This document shows, piece after piece, positions 44,737 to 62,274 of a stretch of DNA of 64,000 nucleotides (position 1 is its first letter; every line of letters begins with the position of its first letter). Below the pieces are notes generated by a model. The model made no database searches. It was not told the origin of the DNA and saw nothing but the letters and a program-made list of their open reading frames with translations. The stretch is from an uncultured Cytophagia bacterium (GTDB lineage: Bacteria; Zhuqueibacterota; Zhuqueibacteria; Oceanimicrobiales; CAZGRP01). The position numbers and the translations under genes were made by a program. Location of the stretch: NCBI GenBank assembly GCA_964527995.1, contig CAZGRP010000004.1, positions 20,230-84,229 of the forward strand. The letters run 5' to 3'.

Positions 44737-44765
44737 TTGACAAACTTCGCTTGTTTCCGTATATT
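44737..44765 (+). promoter_or_regulatory. Sigma-70-type promoter TTGACA-N17-TATATT upstream of sigma-factor gene
   Basis: -35 at 44737-44742 and -10 at 44760-44765. ~60 nt before GTG 44828, which has AAGGAG 5 nt upstream. Confidence 0.55.
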
Positions 44766-45784: not shown

Positions 45785-45813
45785 TTGACAAGTGGTGAAC
45801 CGGTTATTATATT
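45785..45813 (+). promoter_or_regulatory. Sigma-70-type promoter TTGACA-N17-TATATT
   Basis: Same architecture as the promoter at 44737. Upstream of the M23 peptidase gene. Confidence 0.5.
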
Positions 45814-47012: not shown

Positions 47013-47373
47013 GGGGACGACATGGCTTCGACGGGGGTCGAGGAGCCAAGAACTGCATGCCGAGGTTTCCTGGAACCTCGTAAAACACCAGGAGCCCAAA
47101 TTAAACGCAGACAATTATGCGTATGCCCTGGCTGCCTAATTAATTAGTGCAGCCCGCCTTGCCTGGCGAGGCCACCTAGCCAGGTTCGGCGCCGGTAGCG
47201 GTGGCTAGCCAGCAGCTTCTGCCTGAGGGCTGCAGGCGAAACTCAATCGGGCTGGCTTTGAAACAGCTTTGCCTGTTGTGCTGTTCAAAGCGAGATAGAA
47301 CAACAGACTAAGCATGTAGAGGTTCTTGGGGACTGGCCTTCGGACGTGGGTTCGATTCCCACCGTCTCCACCA
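47013..47373 (+). ncRNA. ssrA: tmRNA (SsrA)
   Basis: 5' GGGGACGACATGGCTTCGACGGG...GCATGCCGAGG...CCTCGTAAAA. Tag ORF gca gac aat tat gcg tat gcc ctg gct gcc TAA, encoding ...ADNYAYALAA. 3' tRNA-like arm GGGTTCGATTCCCACCGTCTCCACCA. Confidence 0.85.
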
Positions 47374-47382
47374 GCTTTGTAG

Positions 47383-47433
47383 AAAGCCACACTGGGTGCT
47401 TAGGCTGGCAGCCGGTGTGGCTTTCTTTCTTTC
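47383..47433 (+). terminator. Rho-independent terminator after ssrA
   Basis: aaagccacac ... gtgtggcttt stem followed by tctttctttc. Confidence 0.6.
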
Positions 47434-52714: not shown

Positions 52715-53575
52715 GTGGCAAGAGGTCAGCGGGGAAGCCGCGAGTATATCGACGAAGGATTCCGCCGCTACATGCGGGAGATCCAGGATTTTCCGGTTCT
52801 CACTCGGGCCGAGGAACAGCTTCTGATCCGCAAGGCCAAAGAGGGCGATCGGAAGGCGGCGGAACGGCTGATTGTCAGCAATTTGCGCTTCGTGGTCACG
52901 ATTGCCAATGAGTACAAGGATCGCGGAGTGCCGATGCTGGACTTGATCAGCCAGGGCAACCTCGGCCTGATAAAGGCGCTGGAGACGTTCGATCCGTCCA
53001 GAGGGCTGAAGTTCATCACGTATGCCGTCTGGTGGATCCGGCAGGCGATGCTGCAAGCCATCGCCGATCACTCCAGGGTGGTGCGAATACCCCAGAACCG
53101 ACTTGCCACCATGCGTCGGATTGAAATGGCCCGCCGAGAGCTTCAAAAGGTACACCAGCGCGACCCTGTGACCGAGGAAATCGGCCAGTCGCTTGGAATG
53201 GGTTCCGACGAAGTCCTCGATACCCTTCGGCTCATCCACACTGAAGTCTCCCTCGAGCAGACGCTCCAGGGCGAAAGCGATAGCCAGCTGAAGGAGCTGA
53301 TCGCCAATCCAACGTCACCTCGTCCGGATGATCGCGTCAACGCTGAATCTTTGGGACAGGATTTGCAGGACGCTTTGAGTCTGCTCAGCGACCGCGAGGC
53401 GACAATCTTGCGGCTTTACTATGGTTTGGAAAACGAGCAGGCACACTCTCTCGGCACGATCGGAGAGCGTTTTAATCTGTCACGGGAGAGAATACGGCAG
53501 ATACGCGATCAGGCCTTGAGGAAGCTCCGCCTTTCGGCGGACATCATCGCCCGCCTCCGAGAATACCTCGGCTGA
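52715..53575 (+). CDS. RNA polymerase sigma-70-family factor, short RpoD-like paralog (~50% identical to 44828-45685)
   Basis: [56 protein letters not shown] start 44 nt after the ferredoxin stop. Confidence 0.85.
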   Translation: MARGQRGSREYIDEGFRRYMREIQDFPVLTRAEEQLLIRKAKEGDRKAAERLIVSNLRFVVTIANEYKDRGVPMLDLISQGNLGLIKALETFDPSRGLKFITYAVWWIRQAMLQAIADHSRVVRIPQNRLATMRRIEMARRELQKVHQRDPVTEEIGQSLGMGSDEVLDTLRLIHTEVSLEQTLQGESDSQLKELIANPTSPRPDDRVNAESLGQDLQDALSLLSDREATILRLYYGLENEQAHSLGTIGERFNLSRERIRQIRDQALRKLRLSADIIARLREYLG

Positions 53576-53587
53576 CCCTCGCGGATT

Positions 53588-53875
53588 TCACTTCTTCTTG
53601 AACAGTTCTTCCAGCTTGCGCCGAGCCTGCTGCTGGCGGTCGGAAGGAGCAGGGTGCGGCGTTTTGGCATGCGGACGGAAGTAGTCACAGAAGTTGCCGG
53701 TCTCTTTGTCGCTGACCCAGGCGGCTTGCGGCTCACGGCACTGGTTGTGGGCGTTCGGGTCGTAGAAGTCACAATTGAGGCACACGTGCAGGTAGGCAGT
53801 GCAATGGGGGCAGGTCTCCTGCCGGCCAGGCTTTCCCGTGAGCGGGACTTCAGTCCCGCAGCGGTAGCAGATCAT
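53588..53875 (-). CDS. Cys-rich zinc-ribbon protein, hypothetical
   Basis: CYRCG...CPHC...CLNC...C...C, eight Cys. Basic C-terminus. Convergent with the sigma gene. Confidence 0.55.
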   Translation of the reverse strand: MICYRCGTEVPLTGKPGRQETCPHCTAYLHVCLNCDFYDPNAHNQCREPQAAWVSDKETGNFCDYFRPHAKTPHPAPSDRQQQARRKLEELFKKK

Positions 53876-53923
53876 CCCGCCTTCCGTGCGCAAGGTTGCG
53901 CGTCTTATGGATGGGGTAGAGTT

Positions 53924-53964
53924 GGCGCGCGCCAGGGCCTATAAAAGCCTGAAGGGCGCGCCCT
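53924..53964. promoter_or_regulatory. Dyad element: two GGCGCGCC palindromes flanking a TATAAAA-containing spacer
   Basis: ggcgcgcgcc (53924-53933) and gggcgcgccc (53954-53963). It lies in the region just upstream of the zinc-ribbon gene and upstream of the anti-sigma gene. Confidence 0.3.
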
Positions 53965-54149
53965 AAATCGGACACGCCCCTCGAAGCGCGCACGGGATAC
54001 AACACTCTAAGTAGCTGGCAAACAAAATCCGCAAGCCCTTGCGCCTTGAGCTGGTCTGCGTCGGTGGATCTTCCGCGTCTCGACGCTGACTTTGCGGCGC
54101 AAAAGCGTGTGCTAATATAGCTAACAAAAATCATCCTGTCAAGTGGAAA

Positions 54150-54869
54150 ATGGAGTTTTTGGCTCTTACCGACAAACCTTCTGCCAATCGTCCCGTAAAC
54201 AAAAAAATGTCTGAAGTCTTTCCTCACCAGAGCAAATCTCTTTCTGCCTCTGGAAAGCGACCGACACGCGCTTGGGAGGACAGCGGCCTTGAGGGGGACG
54301 GTTCTGATGTTGCACTTCCGAGTTTGTGGACCAAGAACAGCCAGGCGCTCAGCGTGAAATGGAGTTTGTGCTTTCTACCAGGGGACTTTAGCAATTTTTC
54401 CGAGACGGTGCAGATCAGCTTTCCCAGCAGGCTGGACTACGTGCCCGTAGTCGTCTCCTACCTGACCGAAGTCGCCGCCCGTCTCAAGCTGATCGATGCG
54501 GATGAATCGAACTTCCCGGTCGTGGTAGATGAGGCCCTGACCAACGCCGTAGTCCACGGCAACCGTAGCGACCACGGCAAGCTCGTGCACGTCAGGGCAA
54601 CGTTTACGCCGCACAGGCTGGAGGTCGCGGTGCGCGACGAAGGGCAAGGGTTCGACTATGATCTCTTGCCGAACCCGCTCGAAAAGGACAATCTGCACCG
54701 TACCCACGGCAGAGGTATCTTCTTGATTCGCTCCCTGGTGGATGAACTTCGCTTCAATGAAGCTGGGAATGAGATCATCCTCGTGCAGACTGTCAGACAA
54801 GATGCAGCGAGGAAGCGCCAGTCGAGCCACCCCCATTGTTCTCCCGCCCGAGACTCAGAAACCCCTTGA
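54150..54869 (+). CDS. RsbW/SpoIIAB-type anti-sigma factor serine kinase (HATPase_c_2)
   Basis: VDEALTNAVVHGN (N-box), VRDEGQGFD (G1), GRGIFLIRSLVDEL (G2). Confidence 0.65.
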   Translation: MEFLALTDKPSANRPVNKKMSEVFPHQSKSLSASGKRPTRAWEDSGLEGDGSDVALPSLWTKNSQALSVKWSLCFLPGDFSNFSETVQISFPSRLDYVPVVVSYLTEVAARLKLIDADESNFPVVVDEALTNAVVHGNRSDHGKLVHVRATFTPHRLEVAVRDEGQGFDYDLLPNPLEKDNLHRTHGRGIFLIRSLVDELRFNEAGNEIILVQTVRQDAARKRQSSHPHCSPARDSETP

Positions 54870-54894
54870 CATTGTTAAAATTCTTGAATAATAT
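54866..54894 (+). promoter_or_regulatory. Sigma-70-type promoter TTGACA-N17-TAATAT overlapping anti-sigma stop codon
   Basis: -35 at 54866-54871 and -10 at 54889-54894. Confidence 0.5.
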
Positions 54895-54900
54895 GTAACG

Positions 54901-55098
54901 CCTTGGCGAGGCCATAACGCCCCTCTCTCAGTGATTCGATGTGGCTTTGATTTGGCTTCGCCTGGGTCGTCGGCGAGTACAGATGAGTGGACTTTGCCCC
55001 TGCGGGAGGAGCCCTGTGGGTGCAGAGAAGCAGATGTTTCCTTTCGGGAACAAAGCAGGAGGCATAGCACGAAGCACGTTATGCCTCCTTTCTTTTTG
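54901..55098 (+). ncRNA. Putative ~200-nt noncoding RNA or leader bounded by promoter and intrinsic terminator
   Basis: Promoter at 54866-54894. Terminator aggaggcat (55057-55065) pairs with atgcctcct (55081-55089), followed by ttcttttt. No convincing ORF or RBS in between. Confidence 0.3.
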
Positions 55099-55138
55099 AT
55101 CCGGTGCAAGAAACTGTGGAAACTCGCGGATAGCCCCG

Positions 55139-56707
55139 ATGTCCTTCCCCGTTGCAGCCCGGTCCGACCTGCACGAAGCAGGAGTGCCCTTTGTGCCGGA
55201 GGCGCAAACGTGGGGAGCGCGGATTCTGGCGCTCCTCCCCTCTTCCGACCACTACCTCGTCGATCTCCTGGCAGGCCAGCACTGGAGTGTCGAGGCAGTG
55301 GCCGAGGCTGCATCGCTACTTGAACACGCCCGTCGCCACCAGACCGACTTGATTGTCGTCGACCTGCCGAGCCGATGCGACTGGGCGTTCGATCTCTGCC
55401 AGCGTCTCAAAGAGGATCCGGGGCTGCGTTGGGTGCCGGTGCTGGTCCTGGCAGAGGGACCACGCCAGAGGTATCTCGAACTGCTGACAGTACTGCCGGT
55501 GGAGGATTGTCTGGGCAAGCCGTTCGAGCTGGACGAACTGCTGGCCCGGATGAGCCGTCTTCTGCTGCGGCAGAACCTGCATCGTGCCACCGCCTTACTG
55601 CATGATCTGATCGACTTCGCTCACGTCATGGCCATCATCCTTGATACCAAAGGTCATGTGCGCGCCATCTCTCCCGCTGCCGCCAAGTTCCTCGGGCATA
55701 GCCAGGAGGAGGCTGTTCAGCTCAGGTCTGGCGATATTTTCTCGCCAGATTGCGCTGGCGACTTCGGGCAGCTCGTGCGCACGGCTCGAGCAGGTCGGCA
55801 GGTCAACGGACGGAGGTCACGTCTGATTGACTGTGCTGGCAGAGAGTTGGCCGTGGAGATCGACGCTGCGCCTCTTCCGACGTCCGACGGAGCGATGCAT
55901 GTGGCTCTGATTTTTCGAGACATCTCCTCGCGAGTTCGCGCCGAGAAGGAGGCGGAGGAATATACCCGGCTGCTCCAACAGGCCGTCGAAGAGCGCACTC
56001 GCCGGCTGGTGGAAACGCAGAATCAACTGATCATGTCCGAGAAAATGGCCGTTGTCGGTCAGCTCGCTGCCGGCGTTGCCCACGAAATCCGAAACCCGCT
56101 CAACATTATCGGGATGTCCGCTTATTACCTCGGCAAAGTGCTCGGAGTCCAGGCCGGTAAAGTCGGGGAGCATCTTGAGATCATCCAGGAGGAGATCACC
56201 AGGGCCCAGAAAATCATCGAGAACCTCCTGGATTTCTCGCGGCAGTCCAGCGTAAAGCGTGAAGCTGTGGACCTGAATGGATTGATCCACCTTACCCTGT
56301 CGCTGTTGCAGAAAGAGATTCAGAGAAGCGATATCGAGGTTGTGGCAGATCTGGGGGACGTCCCTCCATGCTACGCCAACAGTGACGATCTGAAACAGGT
56401 GCTCCTCAACCTGATTCTGAATGCTCGGGACGCGATGCCCAATGGCGGCGTTCTCAGCTTGAAGACACGGGCGAACGGCTCCGACTGGGTCGTCTGTGAG
56501 TTACGCGATACAGGCGTCGGCATCTCTACCAGCGACATTCCGAAGATCTTCAATCCGTTTTTCACCACAAAGCTGGAACGCAAGGGCACCGGACTTGGTC
56601 TGGCAATCGTGCGTTCAGCGATCGAACGCAACAGTGGCCAGGTGGAAGTGAAGTCTCATGTGGGAAAGGGTACGTTGTTCATCATCAAACTACCAGCGGC
56701 GAAGTAG
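55139..56707 (+). CDS. Cytoplasmic histidine kinase with N-terminal receiver-like domain (REC-PAS-HisKA-HATPase_c)
   Basis: REC-like DLIVVDL...VPVLVLAE...GKPFELDELLARM. H-box LAAGVAHEIRNPL. N/G boxes LILNARDAM, RDTGVGIS, GTGLGLAI. Confidence 0.8.
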   Translation: MSFPVAARSDLHEAGVPFVPEAQTWGARILALLPSSDHYLVDLLAGQHWSVEAVAEAASLLEHARRHQTDLIVVDLPSRCDWAFDLCQRLKEDPGLRWVPVLVLAEGPRQRYLELLTVLPVEDCLGKPFELDELLARMSRLLLRQNLHRATALLHDLIDFAHVMAIILDTKGHVRAISPAAAKFLGHSQEEAVQLRSGDIFSPDCAGDFGQLVRTARAGRQVNGRRSRLIDCAGRELAVEIDAAPLPTSDGAMHVALIFRDISSRVRAEKEAEEYTRLLQQAVEERTRRLVETQNQLIMSEKMAVVGQLAAGVAHEIRNPLNIIGMSAYYLGKVLGVQAGKVGEHLEIIQEEITRAQKIIENLLDFSRQSSVKREAVDLNGLIHLTLSLLQKEIQRSDIEVVADLGDVPPCYANSDDLKQVLLNLILNARDAMPNGGVLSLKTRANGSDWVVCELRDTGVGISTSDIPKIFNPFFTTKLERKGTGLGLAIVRSAIERNSGQVEVKSHVGKGTLFIIKLPAAK

Positions 56708-56710
56708 ACG

Positions 56711-58081
56711 ATGACGGCTGTTGCGCCACGGATCTTGCTCGTCGATGACGAGGCCAATTTCCGCAAGACGGTGGTCGATCTCCTCAAGCTCGAGGGATAC
56801 GAGGTCTTTACGGCACCGAGCGGAGCCGACGCCCTGGCGATTCTCGAAGATGTCACGGTAGACATTGTCATCACCGATGTGCGCATGCCTCGAATGTCAG
56901 GCGTGGAGCTGTTGCAGCGTCTCCGCCACGCGCATCCCGACGTGGATGTAATCGTGCTCACCGGCTACGGATCGATTCATGACGCGGTGAGAACCATCAA
57001 GATGGGCGCCTACAACTACGTCATGAAACCGGTGAATTTTGAGGAGCTGGCGCGAGACGTTCGTGACATCCTTCGGATGCGGAATCGGCTGCCCGAAGGA
57101 TCAATCGCCTCGGATTCCGCTGCAGACAGCATTGTTGGCAGCAGCCCGCCGATCCGGCACGTCCGGCATCTGATCGACCGGTTCGCGGCATCGGAACTCC
57201 CTGTGCTCATCGAAGGAGAAAGCGGAACCGGCAAGGAGCTGGTTGCCAATGCCATCCATGCGCGCAGTCCCCGAGCCGAGAATCCGTTCGTACGAATCAA
57301 CTGTGCCGCGCTTCCGGAACCACTGACCGAAAGCGAGCTTTTTGGCTACGAACGCGGCGCCTTCACGGGGGCGACCCAGCAGAAGAAGGGAAAAATCGAG
57401 TTGGCGAGCGGCGGAACGCTCTTCCTGGATGAGATCGCCGAGATGCCGCTGGGTACCCAGGCGAAGCTTCTGCGCGCCATCGAACAGCAGGAAATCGAGC
57501 GACTCGGTGGTACGGAGGTCATCAAAGTGGATGTGCGCCTGATCGCCGCAACGAACCAGAACCTGCGCGAGCTGGTGCAACGCGGGGAGTTTCGCAAGGA
57601 CCTGTACTACCGCATCAACGCCGTGTCCATCAAGACGCCGCCGCTTCGCTCGATGCCGGAAGACATTCCGCGTCTGGCCAATTATTTTCTCGACAAACAT
57701 TGCGCTGAGGTCGGAAAGCCGGTTCCCCGGCTCGGACGCGAGGTGATGCAGATTCTTCTCTCTCATCCCTGGCCTGGCAATGTGCGTGAGCTTGCAAACG
57801 TCATCCGCAGGGCGGCTATCCTGTGCGACGGCGGCGAACTGAATCCCGGACATCTTCCCGCAGAACTCGCGGAGCCGCCGGCCGAGGTTGCCGAAGACGA
57901 TGCCAGAACGTTGTCCCTGGATGAGCTTGAGCGACGTCATATCGCTCGCGTGCTGAGATTGACGGCGGGTAACAAGAATGCAGCGGCCCGATTGCTCAAT
58001 ATCCACCGCGATACGCTCTACCGCAAGATACGCAAGTACAACCTGTTATCTGATACCGGAGGAACACGCCAACCGGAGTGA
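56711..58081 (+). CDS. Sigma-54-dependent response regulator (NtrC family)
   Basis: REC (DVRMP), [22 protein letters not shown]-terminal HTH. Confidence 0.85.
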   Translation: MTAVAPRILLVDDEANFRKTVVDLLKLEGYEVFTAPSGADALAILEDVTVDIVITDVRMPRMSGVELLQRLRHAHPDVDVIVLTGYGSIHDAVRTIKMGAYNYVMKPVNFEELARDVRDILRMRNRLPEGSIASDSAADSIVGSSPPIRHVRHLIDRFAASELPVLIEGESGTGKELVANAIHARSPRAENPFVRINCAALPEPLTESELFGYERGAFTGATQQKKGKIELASGGTLFLDEIAEMPLGTQAKLLRAIEQQEIERLGGTEVIKVDVRLIAATNQNLRELVQRGEFRKDLYYRINAVSIKTPPLRSMPEDIPRLANYFLDKHCAEVGKPVPRLGREVMQILLSHPWPGNVRELANVIRRAAILCDGGELNPGHLPAELAEPPAEVAEDDARTLSLDELERRHIARVLRLTAGNKNAAARLLNIHRDTLYRKIRKYNLLSDTGGTRQPE

Positions 58082-58454
58082 TATACGATGGGAAAGAGGG
58101 TACAAGCTCAAACGACGTGGCTCCACAAGCGGCCGCCGCCGTAGGCCTGTGATGCCGAGGTTTAGGATGGACCCCCCATTTTCAGCCTGCTCGCCCGCCC
58201 GGCGAGGGCCCCAGGCGTCGGAAAGCACGGCATCTGCCGCATTTTACGACATCCTGGCGGTATCGTCCTAGTCTTTTGGAAAGCAATGGCTTAGATGGTA
58301 CTGCCTTCATTTGGAAGTCGTAATTTGTCGGCCTGAGGTTCGCTTCATTGGATCGTTACCCTCCATTTCAGGCGCTGTTTGGATGGACCTAAAAGACTGA
58401 AACCACAGCGCTTACCGGACCTTCCTCGACATAGGATTTGTCAGCGATTTGACC

Positions 58455-58471
58455 TTGGTACGTCTGTTGCA
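58455..58471 (+). promoter_or_regulatory. Sigma-54 -24/-12 promoter: TTGGTACG-tctg-TTGCA
   Basis: GG 58457-58458, GC 58469-58470 (12-nt spacing). One mismatch to TGGCACG. ~70 nt upstream of the receiver gene ATG 58539. Confidence 0.5.
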
Positions 58472-58538
58472 GAGGTGCACTGGCCTTTTGGGTGCTGACT
58501 TCCTCCGGGCGCAAGCCCGACCGACAGGGCGTACGGGT

Positions 58539-59087
58539 ATGAATCTGCTTTTGATCGATCCCGAGCGGCGTACGCTCGAGGTCTATCGTGACATCTTTGA
58601 AATATGGGGGTACGACGTGACGGCCGTCCGCACCGGCTCGGAAGCGGCAAAGGCGTTTTCCGAGGCAGCCTTTGATCTTGTCATCCTGGATGACAACCTG
58701 CCGGACACGCCGGGGGTCGAACTGATTCGGGCGATGAAGACGCAAGCGCCGGCGGTTCCGCTGATTGTGATGACGGCCAACTCGACGGTGCGTGGAGCGG
58801 TGAGCGCCATCCGTGCGGGCGCCGACGACTATTTGGCCAAGAGCACCGATGTGGAGGGTGTTCGGCACTGCCTCCAAGAGACCCTCGGGCAGCGCCCCGA
58901 AAACTCGCAGTCAGCCAAACTGCAGGCAGAGATTCTGACGAACCTTCGCCGGGTTCGCGATCATTTGGATGAGGTGATCGGATTTATCGAGCAGGCAAGC
59001 CGCCGAAGGGCCGGGCAGAGCGACACGGGGGCCTCGAGGCCGGCCCAGACAAATCGCCACGCGGAGCGTGAAGATACTGCACCTTGA
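58539..59087 (+). CDS. Stand-alone response-regulator receiver protein with ~70-aa C-terminal tail
   Basis: LLLIDPE, LVILDDNLPD (acceptor Asp), VMTANST, YLAKS. The ORF begins at TTG 58449. Confidence 0.7.
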   Translation: MNLLLIDPERRTLEVYRDIFEIWGYDVTAVRTGSEAAKAFSEAAFDLVILDDNLPDTPGVELIRAMKTQAPAVPLIVMTANSTVRGAVSAIRAGADDYLAKSTDVEGVRHCLQETLGQRPENSQSAKLQAEILTNLRRVRDHLDEVIGFIEQASRRRAGQSDTGASRPAQTNRHAEREDTAP

Positions 59088-59166
59088 TGGCGGAAGCAAG
59101 GAGGTGTTTCTGCCACGGATGAGCTGACACGTTCTGACTCAGCGAGGAAGGTTGTCTCACGGCGAC

Positions 59167-60258
59167 ATGCGTCTGCAACCAGAAACCTGGGGAATCGCAA
59201 GCGGTGATGCGGGAAGTGGGAAGACGACCGTAGCTGCCTGCCTTGGGGCCATCCTGCAACAGCAGGGGCTGCCCGCCCTCATCCTTGATGCGGACCTTAG
59301 AGGCGAGAATTACCTGCTCTCTGCTTCGGTGAGCAGCGAACCGGACGCTCTTTCTGCCAGAGTTCTTTCGGAAGGCTATCTCTTGATCTTGCGCCGCTCG
59401 CTCGGCGACGACTTCGATCGTACCATACGCGGGCTTGAGTCTATCGTGCCGCGAAGGAAGCGATCGGCGCTTCAGCTCTTGCTTGATTTTGGAACAGGAT
59501 CATCGGAAAAATATGCGGAGTTTTTTCCGCTGCTGTCCAATCCGGTGGTTGTGGCGGATCGCACCGGAGAGTCGGTCGCGAAGGCATTGTCCTTTGCTTA
59601 TCGGGCTGTTCTCCGCTGTATCGGCCGCCGACTGCGTCGATATCCAGAAGTCACCCGTATGATTCGGCAGGCTTTGACGCGCGAAGCGGAAGGCTCTGTT
59701 ACTCGGTTGAGTGAGATCGCTTACCACCTGATTGGTGTGAATCGTTATGCGGCTGAGGTGGCTCGATCGATCATTCGTGCTTATCATCCCAAAGTCGTGC
59801 TGAATCGCTCCGAAGAGGTGCAGGAACAGAAGAAGCTGCGACGGCTGTTGGCGCAGGTCCGCCTTGAAACCGATCTGGATATCTCCTTCGGCGGCACTCT
59901 TGCCAACGAGCCTCGACTTGCGGAGGTCGCGGCGCAGGCGACGAAACTGTCGCTCGACGATCCCGAAAGCGAATACGCCATCTGGCTGGCAAGAGAGCTG
60001 GCCCGGAAGCTGCAAGGAGAGAGCCGAATCGATCCACAGGGGGCGCCGCCGACGAAGCCGACCACCCGGCGCAGAAGGTGGCTCGGAGGGCTACTAGGAT
60101 CGGTAGCGATGTTCTGGACGGTATCGCCCAAAGCCGTCAGCCTGCCACCAGGCCGCCGAGCGGGGTTGACCACCGCCGGGCAGACGATTCTCGGAAGCCG
60201 ACCTTTCGATGTTACGCTTTCCCGCTATGTCAGAAAGGGGAATCGCACGATCGTGTAA
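59167..60258 (+). CDS. P-loop ATPase of the MinD/BY-kinase (CpsD/Wzc-like) superfamily, no C-terminal Tyr cluster
   Basis: Walker A GDAGSGKTT. Walker A' ALILDADLRGENY (DxDxR, BY-kinase-like). Start ambiguous (TTG 59152 or ATG 59167). Confidence 0.55.
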   Translation: MRLQPETWGIASGDAGSGKTTVAACLGAILQQQGLPALILDADLRGENYLLSASVSSEPDALSARVLSEGYLLILRRSLGDDFDRTIRGLESIVPRRKRSALQLLLDFGTGSSEKYAEFFPLLSNPVVVADRTGESVAKALSFAYRAVLRCIGRRLRRYPEVTRMIRQALTREAEGSVTRLSEIAYHLIGVNRYAAEVARSIIRAYHPKVVLNRSEEVQEQKKLRRLLAQVRLETDLDISFGGTLANEPRLAEVAAQATKLSLDDPESEYAIWLARELARKLQGESRIDPQGAPPTKPTTRRRRWLGGLLGSVAMFWTVSPKAVSLPPGRRAGLTTAGQTILGSRPFDVTLSRYVRKGNRTIV

Positions 60259-60467
60259 TCGTGGTTGTGAGGCTGGAAGCTGTTCGTCGTAGCTGAGCCT
60301 TTATTATGGGCTCGGAGGGAGACCCATCAATGGGTTCTGGGCGCAAGGTAGGATGTAGTGCCGAACGAGCCCAAAACGGAGGAAGGATGCAACCGCCATG
60401 ACGGCTGCCCGGACCCTCGCCGATCTTCGGACGGTGAGGGCGGGCAGCCGGGGTTGCTGCAAAGAGG

Positions 60468-61607
60468 ATGGAACCATCAAAGCATCAGGAGGGAGGCGTG
60501 ACTGGGTTCGAGTTCTCCTGGATTCGTGACGAGAAGGGGTTCGAAGCTTTGCAAGACGAGTGGGAGGCGCTGCTGGCGCGAAGCGGTTTGAACAGTATGT
60601 GCCTGAGCTGGGAGTGGATGTGGACCTGGTGGAGGGTCTATGGCGGGCGGAGCCAGCTCGCCCTGCTGTCGATTCGGCGCCGCGGAGAGCTGGTTGGGCT
60701 CGCGCCATTGCTTCGTGCCCCGGAGCGACGTCCCGGGCGGGAAATCGGCTGGGCCTTTCGGTTTCTTGGAAACGGCGAGACCGGGTCCGACTACCTGGAT
60801 GTCATTTGCGACACCGCCTACCAGAGAGAGGTGCTCGCAACACTGGCCGAGGTGCTTGTCGAGGAGGCGGAGGGCTGGGATGTCGTCGAGCTTTCGGCGT
60901 TGCCGGCCCACTCGGTCACCAGGCGGTTCTTGAGCGATTTCTTGAGCAGGCGGAACTTTTTTGTCGGCCGGGCACGAAACCAGGTATGCCCTTATCTCGA
61001 CCTTCCATCGTCGTGGGACGTCTTCCTGCGCCGCATCGACAAGGGGCTACGCAGCGTGCTGCGCTACAGGACCAACCAGCTCCTCCACCGTCACCGCGTG
61101 CGTTTCGAGCGCTGCCGGCGGGAAAGTCAGTTCGACGCTAGCTTTGGCACCTTAGTTCGCCTGCACCAGCATCTCTGGGAGGGACGAGGAATCTCGGGGG
61201 CATTCGCCAGCGAAAGCTACTACCGTTTTCACCGCAAGTTCGCTCAGGAGGCCCTGCGCCGTGACTGGTTGCGCCTTTTTGTGCTGAGAATCGATGACGA
61301 GCCGGTGGGGGCGGTCTGCGGCTACCATTTCGGAGACGTGGGCTATTTCTTCCAGATGGGATACGATCACGGCTGGAGTGGCCTGCAGCTCGACATCATT
61401 CTGGTGGGCCGTGCAATCCGGGATGCTATCGATTCGGGACTGTCCCAGTTTCGCTTCATGCATTCCGATTCAGAATACACGTTGCGTTGGACCAAACATT
61501 CTCACATGAACACCCACTGGGAAGTGCGACCGGCGACGAGCCTTCAGCAGCCCGGGACGACGCCGACATTTGAGAGGGTGGCCAGAGCCTACAACCCTGC
61601 TCTATGA
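60468..61607 (+). CDS. GNAT-fold FemAB/CelD-like protein (Acetyltransf_6-type, exopolysaccharide-associated)
   Basis: YYRFHRKF, LFVLRIDDEPVGAVCGYHFGDVGYFFQMGYD pattern recalled from CelD/BioF2-like proteins. Alternative GTG start at 60501 with AGGAGGGAGG RBS. Confidence 0.55.
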   Translation: MEPSKHQEGGVTGFEFSWIRDEKGFEALQDEWEALLARSGLNSMCLSWEWMWTWWRVYGGRSQLALLSIRRRGELVGLAPLLRAPERRPGREIGWAFRFLGNGETGSDYLDVICDTAYQREVLATLAEVLVEEAEGWDVVELSALPAHSVTRRFLSDFLSRRNFFVGRARNQVCPYLDLPSSWDVFLRRIDKGLRSVLRYRTNQLLHRHRVRFERCRRESQFDASFGTLVRLHQHLWEGRGISGAFASESYYRFHRKFAQEALRRDWLRLFVLRIDDEPVGAVCGYHFGDVGYFFQMGYDHGWSGLQLDIILVGRAIRDAIDSGLSQFRFMHSDSEYTLRWTKHSHMNTHWEVRPATSLQQPGTTPTFERVARAYNPAL

Positions 61608-62191: not shown

Positions 62192-62274
62192 CCTGATCGC
62201 ACGACTACGCAAGACAACCCGCAAAAAAACGCCCAGTCCCGCAGGGGACCGGGCGTGTACGGAGGAAAGGCAAC

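Follow-up and report, generated by a model that had tools for sequence, protein, structure and literature searches.

A conserved promoter- and terminator-bounded non-coding unit, a candidate attenuator leader, upstream of a histidine kinase/sigma-54 regulator operon in an uncultured bacterium

Introduction

Terminator attenuators in 5′ leaders include those that work by protein-dependent antitermination or termination, as in the bgl/sac (ribonucleic antiterminator, RAT), hut, trp and pyr types. Some terminated leaders double as trans-acting RNAs, namely SreA/SreB of Listeria and EutX/Rli55 of Enterococcus and Listeria, and these are riboswitch-derived with highly conserved aptamers. Here, a stretch of 64,000 nt from an uncultured Cytophagia bacterium (contig CAZGRP010000004.1, positions 20,230 to 84,229 of the forward strand; the whole stretch is referred to as the window) was analysed for a non-coding unit that lies between the gene of an anti-sigma kinase and that of a histidine kinase and is bounded by a promoter and a terminator. 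A further relevant system is the small RNA (sRNA) Pxr of myxobacteria, which adjoins the PxrK/PxrR two-component system across species and contains several stem-loops; pxr is located downstream of the regulator gene, and its predicted promoter is of the sigma-54 type and accompanied by an enhancer site (PMC5684412).

The locus resembles the classic attenuators in the order of promoter, structured untranslated leader and terminator tens of nucleotides before the gene, in the lack of a second promoter, and in having a segment of conserved primary sequence that overlaps the terminator on its 5′ side. It differs from them in that no conserved antiterminator hairpin, no nearby gene for a cognate RNA-binding regulator and no Rfam match were found, and in that a two-component system would be regulated instead of a catabolic or biosynthetic operon. 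The layout is thus like that of terminator attenuators, yet the locus has the defining features of none of the specific families tested. As with SreA/SreB and EutX/Rli55, a short RNA terminated before an operon can have a second role in trans, whereas the part upstream of the terminator evolves near-neutrally here. Pxr is likewise a non-coding RNA beside a histidine kinase and an NtrC-like sigma-54 regulator, with a conserved segment in its terminal stem (PMC5684412), but in the present locus the RNA is upstream of the kinase, co-oriented with it and preceded by a sigma-70-type promoter, and no similarity between the two was detected with Rfam.

The unit is a real, conserved, non-coding transcription unit of conventional kind and is in no described RNA family. 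Tentatively, it is read here as a transcribed non-coding leader whose terminator attenuates the kinase/sigma-54 regulator operon, with release of an abundant short RNA. This reading was favoured because the conserved parts are cis elements (the promoter, the terminator and the sequence leading from it to the kinase ATG), because no conserved single-stranded seed was present and because a separate kinase promoter was found in none of the lineages compared.

Results

Promoter and terminator

The features that delimit the unit and connect it to the kinase gene are as follows.

54864-54903, plus strand: promoter block, with the -35 hexamer TTGACA (54866-54871), an AT-rich spacer of 17 nt, the -10 hexamer TAATAT (54889-54894) and the GC-rich GTAACGCC downstream.
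55049-55056, plus strand: A-tract AACAAAGC, which can pair with the U-run and so extend the terminator.
55057-55089, plus strand: intrinsic terminator hairpin, with a 12-bp stem AGGAGGCATAGC (55057-55068) / GTTATGCCTCCT (55078-55089) and a 9-nt loop.
55090-55097, plus strand: U-run TTCTTTTT, the predicted 3′ end of the short RNA.
55105-55138, plus strand: post-terminator block TGCAAGAAACTGTGGAAACTCGCGG...CCG, up to the kinase ATG.

An initial annotation, made from the letters of the sequence, had placed a TTGACA-N17-TAATAT promoter over the anti-sigma stop codon, and this was borne out at 54866-54894, with the stop codon TGA (54867-54869) lying inside the -35 hexamer. By consensus scan the promoter has 10 of 12 consensus matches, and promoter sites of this 10/12 type were found twice in 3 kb, against 0.7 expected from shuffles. 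Both hexamers, at a spacing in the range of 16-18 nt, are kept in the orthologues, as in a sigma-70-type promoter. Transcription is predicted to start near G54900, so that the predicted transcript extends from about 54900, an inferred start, to 55097 and is roughly 195 nt long. Two more promoters, TTGACA-17-TATATT with 11/12 matches each, were observed on the plus strand at 44737-44765 and 45785-45813. Both precede genes that encode proteins, so a near-consensus promoter does not by itself mark an RNA gene in the source organism.

The hairpin was missed by a generic terminator scan, the loop limit of which was 8 nt. A custom scan for stems of 10 bp or more with a T-rich tail directly after the hairpin was run over both strands of the whole 64 kb, and against 20 dinucleotide shuffles. 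Only two sites were returned, 55057-55089 and 62229-62256 (minus strand), and none in the shuffles. The strong terminator of the initial annotation was thus recovered with its T-run, but its stem, given there as 9 bp, has 12 pairs, one of them G.U. The free energy of the hairpin alone is -19.4 kcal/mol, and those of its orthologues are -15.2 and -19.0 kcal/mol. From the end of the T-run to the kinase ATG (55139) the distance is 41 nt, close to the 40 nt or so first estimated. A stable hairpin and a U-run, both kept in the orthologous loci, characterize the element as a predicted intrinsic (Rho-independent) terminator.

Conservation against the neutral background

The unit was found at the same position in four lineages, namely the window species (with its strains L001-L003), L004, L085 and L086. 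L004 covers the promoter and only 58 nt of the RNA, and the contig end of L085 falls inside the promoter spacer, so the terminator is covered by three lineages (window, L085 and L086). In L086 the synteny is complete, comprising the sigma gene, the opposite-strand Zn-ribbon open reading frame (ORF), the anti-sigma gene, the intergenic RNA, the kinase gene and the regulator gene; the order of RNA, kinase and regulator is found in L085 as well. The three strains differ from the window by two single-nucleotide polymorphisms (54925 and 54934), which both map to the apical region of the 5′ hairpin.

The neutral background was taken from the kinase gene. The kinase proteins are 66-77% identical between lineages in full-length alignments, and the 4-fold degenerate sites of the gene are 32-37% identical, which indicates that neutral sites are saturated. 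Against this background, the promoter is identical to that of the window at 29/29 positions in L004, at 15/15 of the available part in L085 and at 25/29 in L086. Within the promoter, the spacer (54872-54888) and its counterpart in L086 (2293-2309), the most distant lineage, are identical at 15 of 17 positions. Since the anti-sigma stop codon of L086 lies 48 nt upstream of the -35 hexamer, coding constraint does not explain the conservation of the promoter. A neighbouring minus-strand promoter, described below, keeps its hexamers only, unlike the RNA promoter with its conserved spacer. A regulator-binding site inside the spacer is suggested by these sequences, and the promoter itself may be regulated.

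The A-tract and 5′ arm of the terminator are identical to the window at 19/20 (L085) and 17/20 (L086) positions, and the 3′ arm and T-run at 16/20 and 19/20, respectively, whereas the hairpin loop is at the neutral level (3/9 and 4/9). All 12 pairs of the stem are kept in the three lineages; nine are invariant and three show one-sided changes, these being two G-C to G.U changes in L085 and one G.U to A-U change in L086. T-runs follow the stem in L085 (TTTTTTGTTTCT) and L086 (TTTGTTTTTT), and AAA-UUU pairing of the A-tract and the U-run was predicted by RNAalifold in all three lineages. The AGGAGG of the 5′ arm is invariant wherever the terminator is covered.

Upstream of the terminator, the 5′ body of the RNA is neutral (23/67 in L085 and 25/71 in L086, about 35%), and so is the region named SL4 (8/21 and 6/20); the hairpin SL3 is identical at 31/35 and 20/36 positions, respectively. 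Between the terminator and the kinase ATG, 25/40 (L085) and 21/41 (L086) positions are identical (51-62%), against about 35% for neutral sites. The retention of promoter and terminator while synonymous sites are saturated indicates that the unit, as a cassette of promoter and terminator, is under purifying selection and is not a product of chance. A discrete non-coding unit bounded by the two elements, as initially annotated, is strongly supported by this conservation in four lineages; among the identities then offered for it, a 6S-like RNA did not stand, while an sRNA and an attenuator are both possible.

The lineage that carries the unit is rare and the family is tiny, four lineages having been found. 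The search with the anti-sigma protein returned one identical cluster and a single relative of 58% identity on a 692-bp contig, and that with the kinase N-terminus returned two orthologues, with reported identities of 68% and 60%; L004, L085 and L086 come from the contigs of these relatives. In a genome collection of species representatives, scanning with the kinase yielded paralogues alone, whose identity over the kinase core did not exceed 44%. No matches to the conserved terminator pattern were found in a metagenome scan, although the pattern finds the known loci locally; the two matches to the conserved promoter pattern were both rejected as chance matches in AT-rich coding DNA. Further copies of the promoter, the terminator arm or the post-terminator block were not found in the window. 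Homologues of the neighbouring genes belong loosely to Calditrichota, KSB1, Thermodesulfobacteriota and Dadabacteria-like groups.

Expression of the kinase operon

The genes that flank the unit are given below.

54150-54869, plus strand: RsbW-like anti-sigma Ser/Thr kinase of 239 aa (Pfam HATPase_c_2, E 4e-27).
55139-56707, plus strand: histidine kinase with the Pfam architecture REC-PAS-HisKA-HATPase.
56711-58081, plus strand: NtrC-type sigma-54-dependent response regulator (Pfam), forming with the kinase gene an operon at 55139-58081.

Between the terminator and the kinase ATG, no sigma-70-type promoter with at least 8/12 matches at a conserved position was found in any lineage, and by eye neither a GG-N10-GC sigma-54 motif nor a sigma-28 motif was seen in this interval. 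As no promoter is detectable past the terminator, the mRNA of the kinase and regulator would presumably have to come through it. The distance from the terminator to the ATG is alike, roughly 40-45 nt, in the three lineages covering the region, which favours a role in cis. The post-terminator block is probably the untranslated leader and translation-initiation region of the read-through mRNA. A Shine-Dalgarno (SD) sequence before the kinase ATG was found in none of the three lineages with the region, and most genes of the window are without one. The suggestion of the initial annotation that AGGAGG could sequester a ribosome-binding site was accordingly abandoned for that of the kinase, the motif being 76 nt upstream of the ATG. 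A fold occluding the start codon had partial support, from two of three lineages, and the duplexes predicted for the RNA with the start region of the kinase were long and uninformative.

The same arrangement could be explained if the terminator merely ended the anti-sigma transcript as part of its 3′ untranslated region (UTR), the promoter drove the kinase by way of an extended 5′ UTR that was itself inert, and the hairpin served as a stabilizer or insulator. Before 55057 there is no separate terminator for the anti-sigma gene, and upstream transcripts must end at the hairpin or pass it, as this explanation would have it. It was nevertheless judged very unlikely, because a strong terminator without a function would defeat the purpose of a consensus promoter that has no other genes downstream and because the primary sequence is kept far beyond what a generic terminator needs.

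Structure and coding potential of the RNA

The full-length RNAs of the three lineages are 196, 179 and 187 nt long, and all of them fold better than shuffles (z of -2.6, -3.2 and -3.35, respectively). The following hairpins precede the terminator in the window RNA.

54900-54967, plus strand: 5′ domain SL1, a long imperfect hairpin of lineage-variable sequence.
54993-55026, plus strand: SL3, a GC-rich hairpin with the hexaloop AGGAGC (55007-55012).

Three elements were kept by RNAalifold: a small 5′ helix, SL3 and the terminator. A 5′ hairpin of about 68 nt occurs in the minimum free energy (MFE) folds of the window RNA and L085, yet its sequences are unalignable, and L086 folds differently there. 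The inner 8-bp stem of SL3 is kept, with two pairs changed on both sides and a few broken pairs in L086. Folding and covariation, proposed initially as a check, retained the terminator stem, with wobble changes only, and SL3, with two doubly changed pairs, whereas the 5′ body proved variable. SL4 was rejected as a conserved element, since the hairpins of the window and L085 are out of register in the ungapped homologous alignment. A riboswitch-like sensor was also rejected: a neutral 5′ body (about 35%) with a terminator about 90% identical is the reverse of the pattern of an aptamer and its platform.

The RNA could instead be the product of a free-standing gene for a trans-acting sRNA, in which case the ~195-nt transcript would pair with RNA or bind protein elsewhere and the kinase would depend on an unrecognised promoter or on leakage. 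Such a gene would be a discrete unit like this one, which is non-coding, starts from its own near-consensus promoter and ends in a strong terminator flanked by an A-tract and a U-run; its length of 179-196 nt, typical of sRNAs, is kept in three lineages, the RNA is significantly structured, and the spacer kept in the most distant lineage, where the minus-strand promoter keeps only hexamers, hints at dedicated regulation of the RNA. A precedent is Pxr, which coevolves with an adjacent NtrC-type two-component system and needs a conserved terminator-stem segment for its accumulation (PMC5684412). Against a trans-acting sRNA, no conserved accessible seed was found: no unpaired segment is conserved across the three lineages, and the blocks conserved within the RNA (SL3 and the terminator) are all paired. 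The kinase would moreover be left without a detectable promoter, and no second copy or related RNA was found in the window or in 90 other loci. A stand-alone sRNA gene was regarded as less likely than the attenuated leader, yet as its main and serious rival. The terminated RNA of an attenuated leader may also act in trans, the cis and trans roles being not mutually exclusive.

Titration of a protein, as by CsrB/RsmZ-type RNAs, or mimicry of a Shine-Dalgarno sequence was also considered, with a CsrA-like protein or 30S subunits as the bound partner. CsrB, RsmY and RsmZ share with this locus the strength of both promoter and terminator, the presence of several hairpins and the occurrence of some GGA motifs, and the AGGAGG in the 5′ arm of the terminator does not vary. 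L086 shows an enrichment of AGGA (5 observed against 1.1 expected, p=0.0015), and one of its hairpin loops, CAAGGAUG, resembles the consensus obtained for CsrA by systematic evolution of ligands by exponential enrichment (SELEX), and GGA is marginally enriched in L085 (8 against 4.7, p=0.04). In the window RNA, however, GGA is not enriched (5 against 4.6 expected, p=0.5) and A.GGA does not occur; its density is far below that of CsrB, RsmY and RsmZ. GGA is not conserved in homologous loops either, the SL3 loop being AGGAGC in the window, AGGAUU in L085 and AGAAUU in L086, and the invariant AGGAGG is buried in a stem of -19 kcal/mol. By tblastn neither csrA nor hfq was found in the 64-kb window, a result uninformative at that scope. 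The CsrA sponge was rejected on the shuffle statistics of the window RNA and the loss of GGA in the homologous loop, and titration or mimicry of any kind was considered highly improbable.

The remaining identities were a 6S-like RNA, a gene for a small protein on either strand, and a DNA operator formed by the 12-bp inverted repeat. Like 6S RNA (RF00013 and relatives), the unit has a length of about 190 nt, a strong housekeeping-type promoter and a GC-rich segment after the -10 hexamer; unlike it, the RNA has no covariance-model match and lacks a rod architecture, with neither a closing stem nor a central bubble. For all three orthologues, the MFE and centroid structures are multi-hairpin and end in a self-contained 3′ terminator, and the 6S-like candidate of the initial annotation was given up. 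The Rfam scan that had been proposed with it was run with Rfam 15, whose coverage includes riboswitches, T-box, leaders, named sRNAs including Pxr, the atoC motif, 6S and CsrB/Rsm, and matched no family: nothing relevant was found at E<=10 in the window region, nor at E<=5 in L085, L086 and L004. For a small protein, AAAGGAGG on the minus strand, followed after 6 nt by GTG, opens an ORF of 49 aa (54928-55077). This candidate was rejected, as its counterparts in the orthologues have 27 and 21 aa and the SD sequence and GTG are absent in L085; the minus-strand SD and ORF arise from the palindromic nature of the stem. On neither strand is an ORF conserved, the plus-strand frames differing in starts and stops, and neither start, frame nor length is kept in the orthologues, in agreement with the initial annotation, which had seen no ORF in the unit. 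For an operator, the inverted repeat could bind a dimeric regulator, but the outer arm changes from C to T on the 3′ side only, which keeps the RNA pair as G.U and breaks the symmetry of the DNA, and no sigma-54 promoter lies downstream. Together these three identities were given very little credence.

Proposed mechanism

For the attenuated leader, the following mechanism is proposed. The near-consensus housekeeping-type promoter (54866-54894) would start the RNA near 54900, and most polymerases would stop at the terminator (55057-55097), releasing the structured RNA at a length of about 195 nt. The few that read through would give the kinase/regulator mRNA, and the operon would be expressed solely from this read-through fraction, the size of which might be modulated. 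More speculatively, a trans factor could read the A-tract and 5′ arm (AAAGCAGGAGGCATA) as sequence and compete with hairpin formation. The 5′ arm and A-tract, with the AGGAGG, are invariant in sequence while the loop drifts and the 3′ arm accepts C-to-U changes by which G.U pairs are kept, and the 5′ arm is therefore perhaps read as sequence by a factor, for which it may be the docking site. That an RNA-binding protein or, by its anti-Shine-Dalgarno sequence, the 30S subunit docks on the A-tract and AGGAGG arm and blocks the terminator, which would be an undescribed factor-dependent antitermination switch, was thought unlikely.

Several points weigh against attenuation of the kinase operon. 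When the 3′ arm was withheld, the 5′ arm had no strong and consistent partner in the three lineages, and no conserved antiterminator was found, although an alternative fold stabilised by a protein is conceivable. Covariation in the terminator is limited to one-sided changes in three lineages, and the terminator seems to be constitutive and strong, which fits a stand-alone sRNA gene equally well. No gene for an RNA-binding antiterminator of the ANTAR, PRD/CAT, HutP, TRAP or PyrR type was found nearby. The kinase could have a promoter for an unrecognised alternative sigma factor, maybe the post-terminator block itself, and an alternative sigma factor is encoded two genes upstream of the kinase. 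Finally, we infer the transcription start, the termination and the read-through alike from the sequence.

If the leader is confirmed, an unclassified and lineage-specific regulatory RNA would be added for a poorly known uncultured group, and a two-component/sigma-54 operon would depend for its expression on a consensus promoter followed by a terminator that is either leaky or regulated. The antitermination switch, if true, would set the level of a sigma-54 two-component system beside a sigma/anti-sigma module. The invariance of the AGGAGG arm at a distance at which synonymous sites are saturated provides a handle for testing whether a factor recognises the sequence of a terminator in addition to its structure. 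In practical terms the impact is modest, given a family of four lineages, uncultured organisms and a conventional architecture.

Neighbouring genes and a second leader unit

The neighbours of the unit comprise a sigma factor, the anti-sigma kinase, the histidine kinase, sigma-54 regulators, a receiver-only protein, a ParA-like ATPase and a GNAT protein. The NCBIfam RsbW match of the anti-sigma kinase is under the curated cutoff. The length of this protein varies, with 239 aa in the window (54150-54869), 163 aa in L004 (118-609) and 194 aa in L086 (1654-2238); in the window protein, HATPase_c_2 is preceded by about 85 aa of N-terminal extension, and the coding sequence of the proline-rich C-terminal tail runs into the -35 hexamer.

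The sigma gene (52715-53575, plus strand) and the anti-sigma gene (54150-54869, plus strand) are separated by the opposite-strand Zn-ribbon gene, and the order is the same in L086. No plus-strand promoter for the anti-sigma gene was detected in 52715-54869. Its transcription may depend on read-through that runs antisense to the Zn-ribbon gene, an arrangement resembling an excludon.

A second leader unit was observed on the minus strand at 53945-54142. It has a TTGACA-17-TATATT promoter at 54142-54114 and a leader of about 160 nt that ends in a 13-bp hairpin (53982-53951) with the short U-run AGGCTTTTAT, and about 75 nt after the hairpin lies a Cys-rich Zn-ribbon ORF of 95 aa (53588-53875, minus strand), for which this promoter is the only visible one. 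A block of 26 nt leading into the 5′ arm of the hairpin is identical at 26/26 positions in L086 (about 1357-1419), while the 5′ part diverges; no Rfam match was obtained for the element. The design, with a promoter, a long structured leader, a conserved terminator-like hairpin and an ORF, is the same as that of the kinase leader, which leans towards a cis role for the latter, and the factor-dependent antitermination logic might extend to the minus-strand leader. The 95-aa Zn-ribbon family gave 488 matches, labelled Calditrichaeota, KSB1, Thermodesulfobacteriota and others, and contains no Pfam domain. Among its homologues L087-L091, synteny was lost in the three more distant contigs that were analysed.

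Downstream of the sigma-54 regulator, at 58449-61607, genes for a receiver-only response regulator, a ParA/MinD-like ATPase and an Acetyltransf_6 (FemAB-like GNAT) protein were observed, in the same order as in L085, and these genes may belong to the kinase operon or its regulon. The only match of the window at the Rfam gathering level was the transfer-messenger RNA (tmRNA) gene at 47013-47373 (plus strand, 204.7 bits), which encodes the tag peptide ADNYAYALAA and is followed by a short terminator-like hairpin at 47410-47422.

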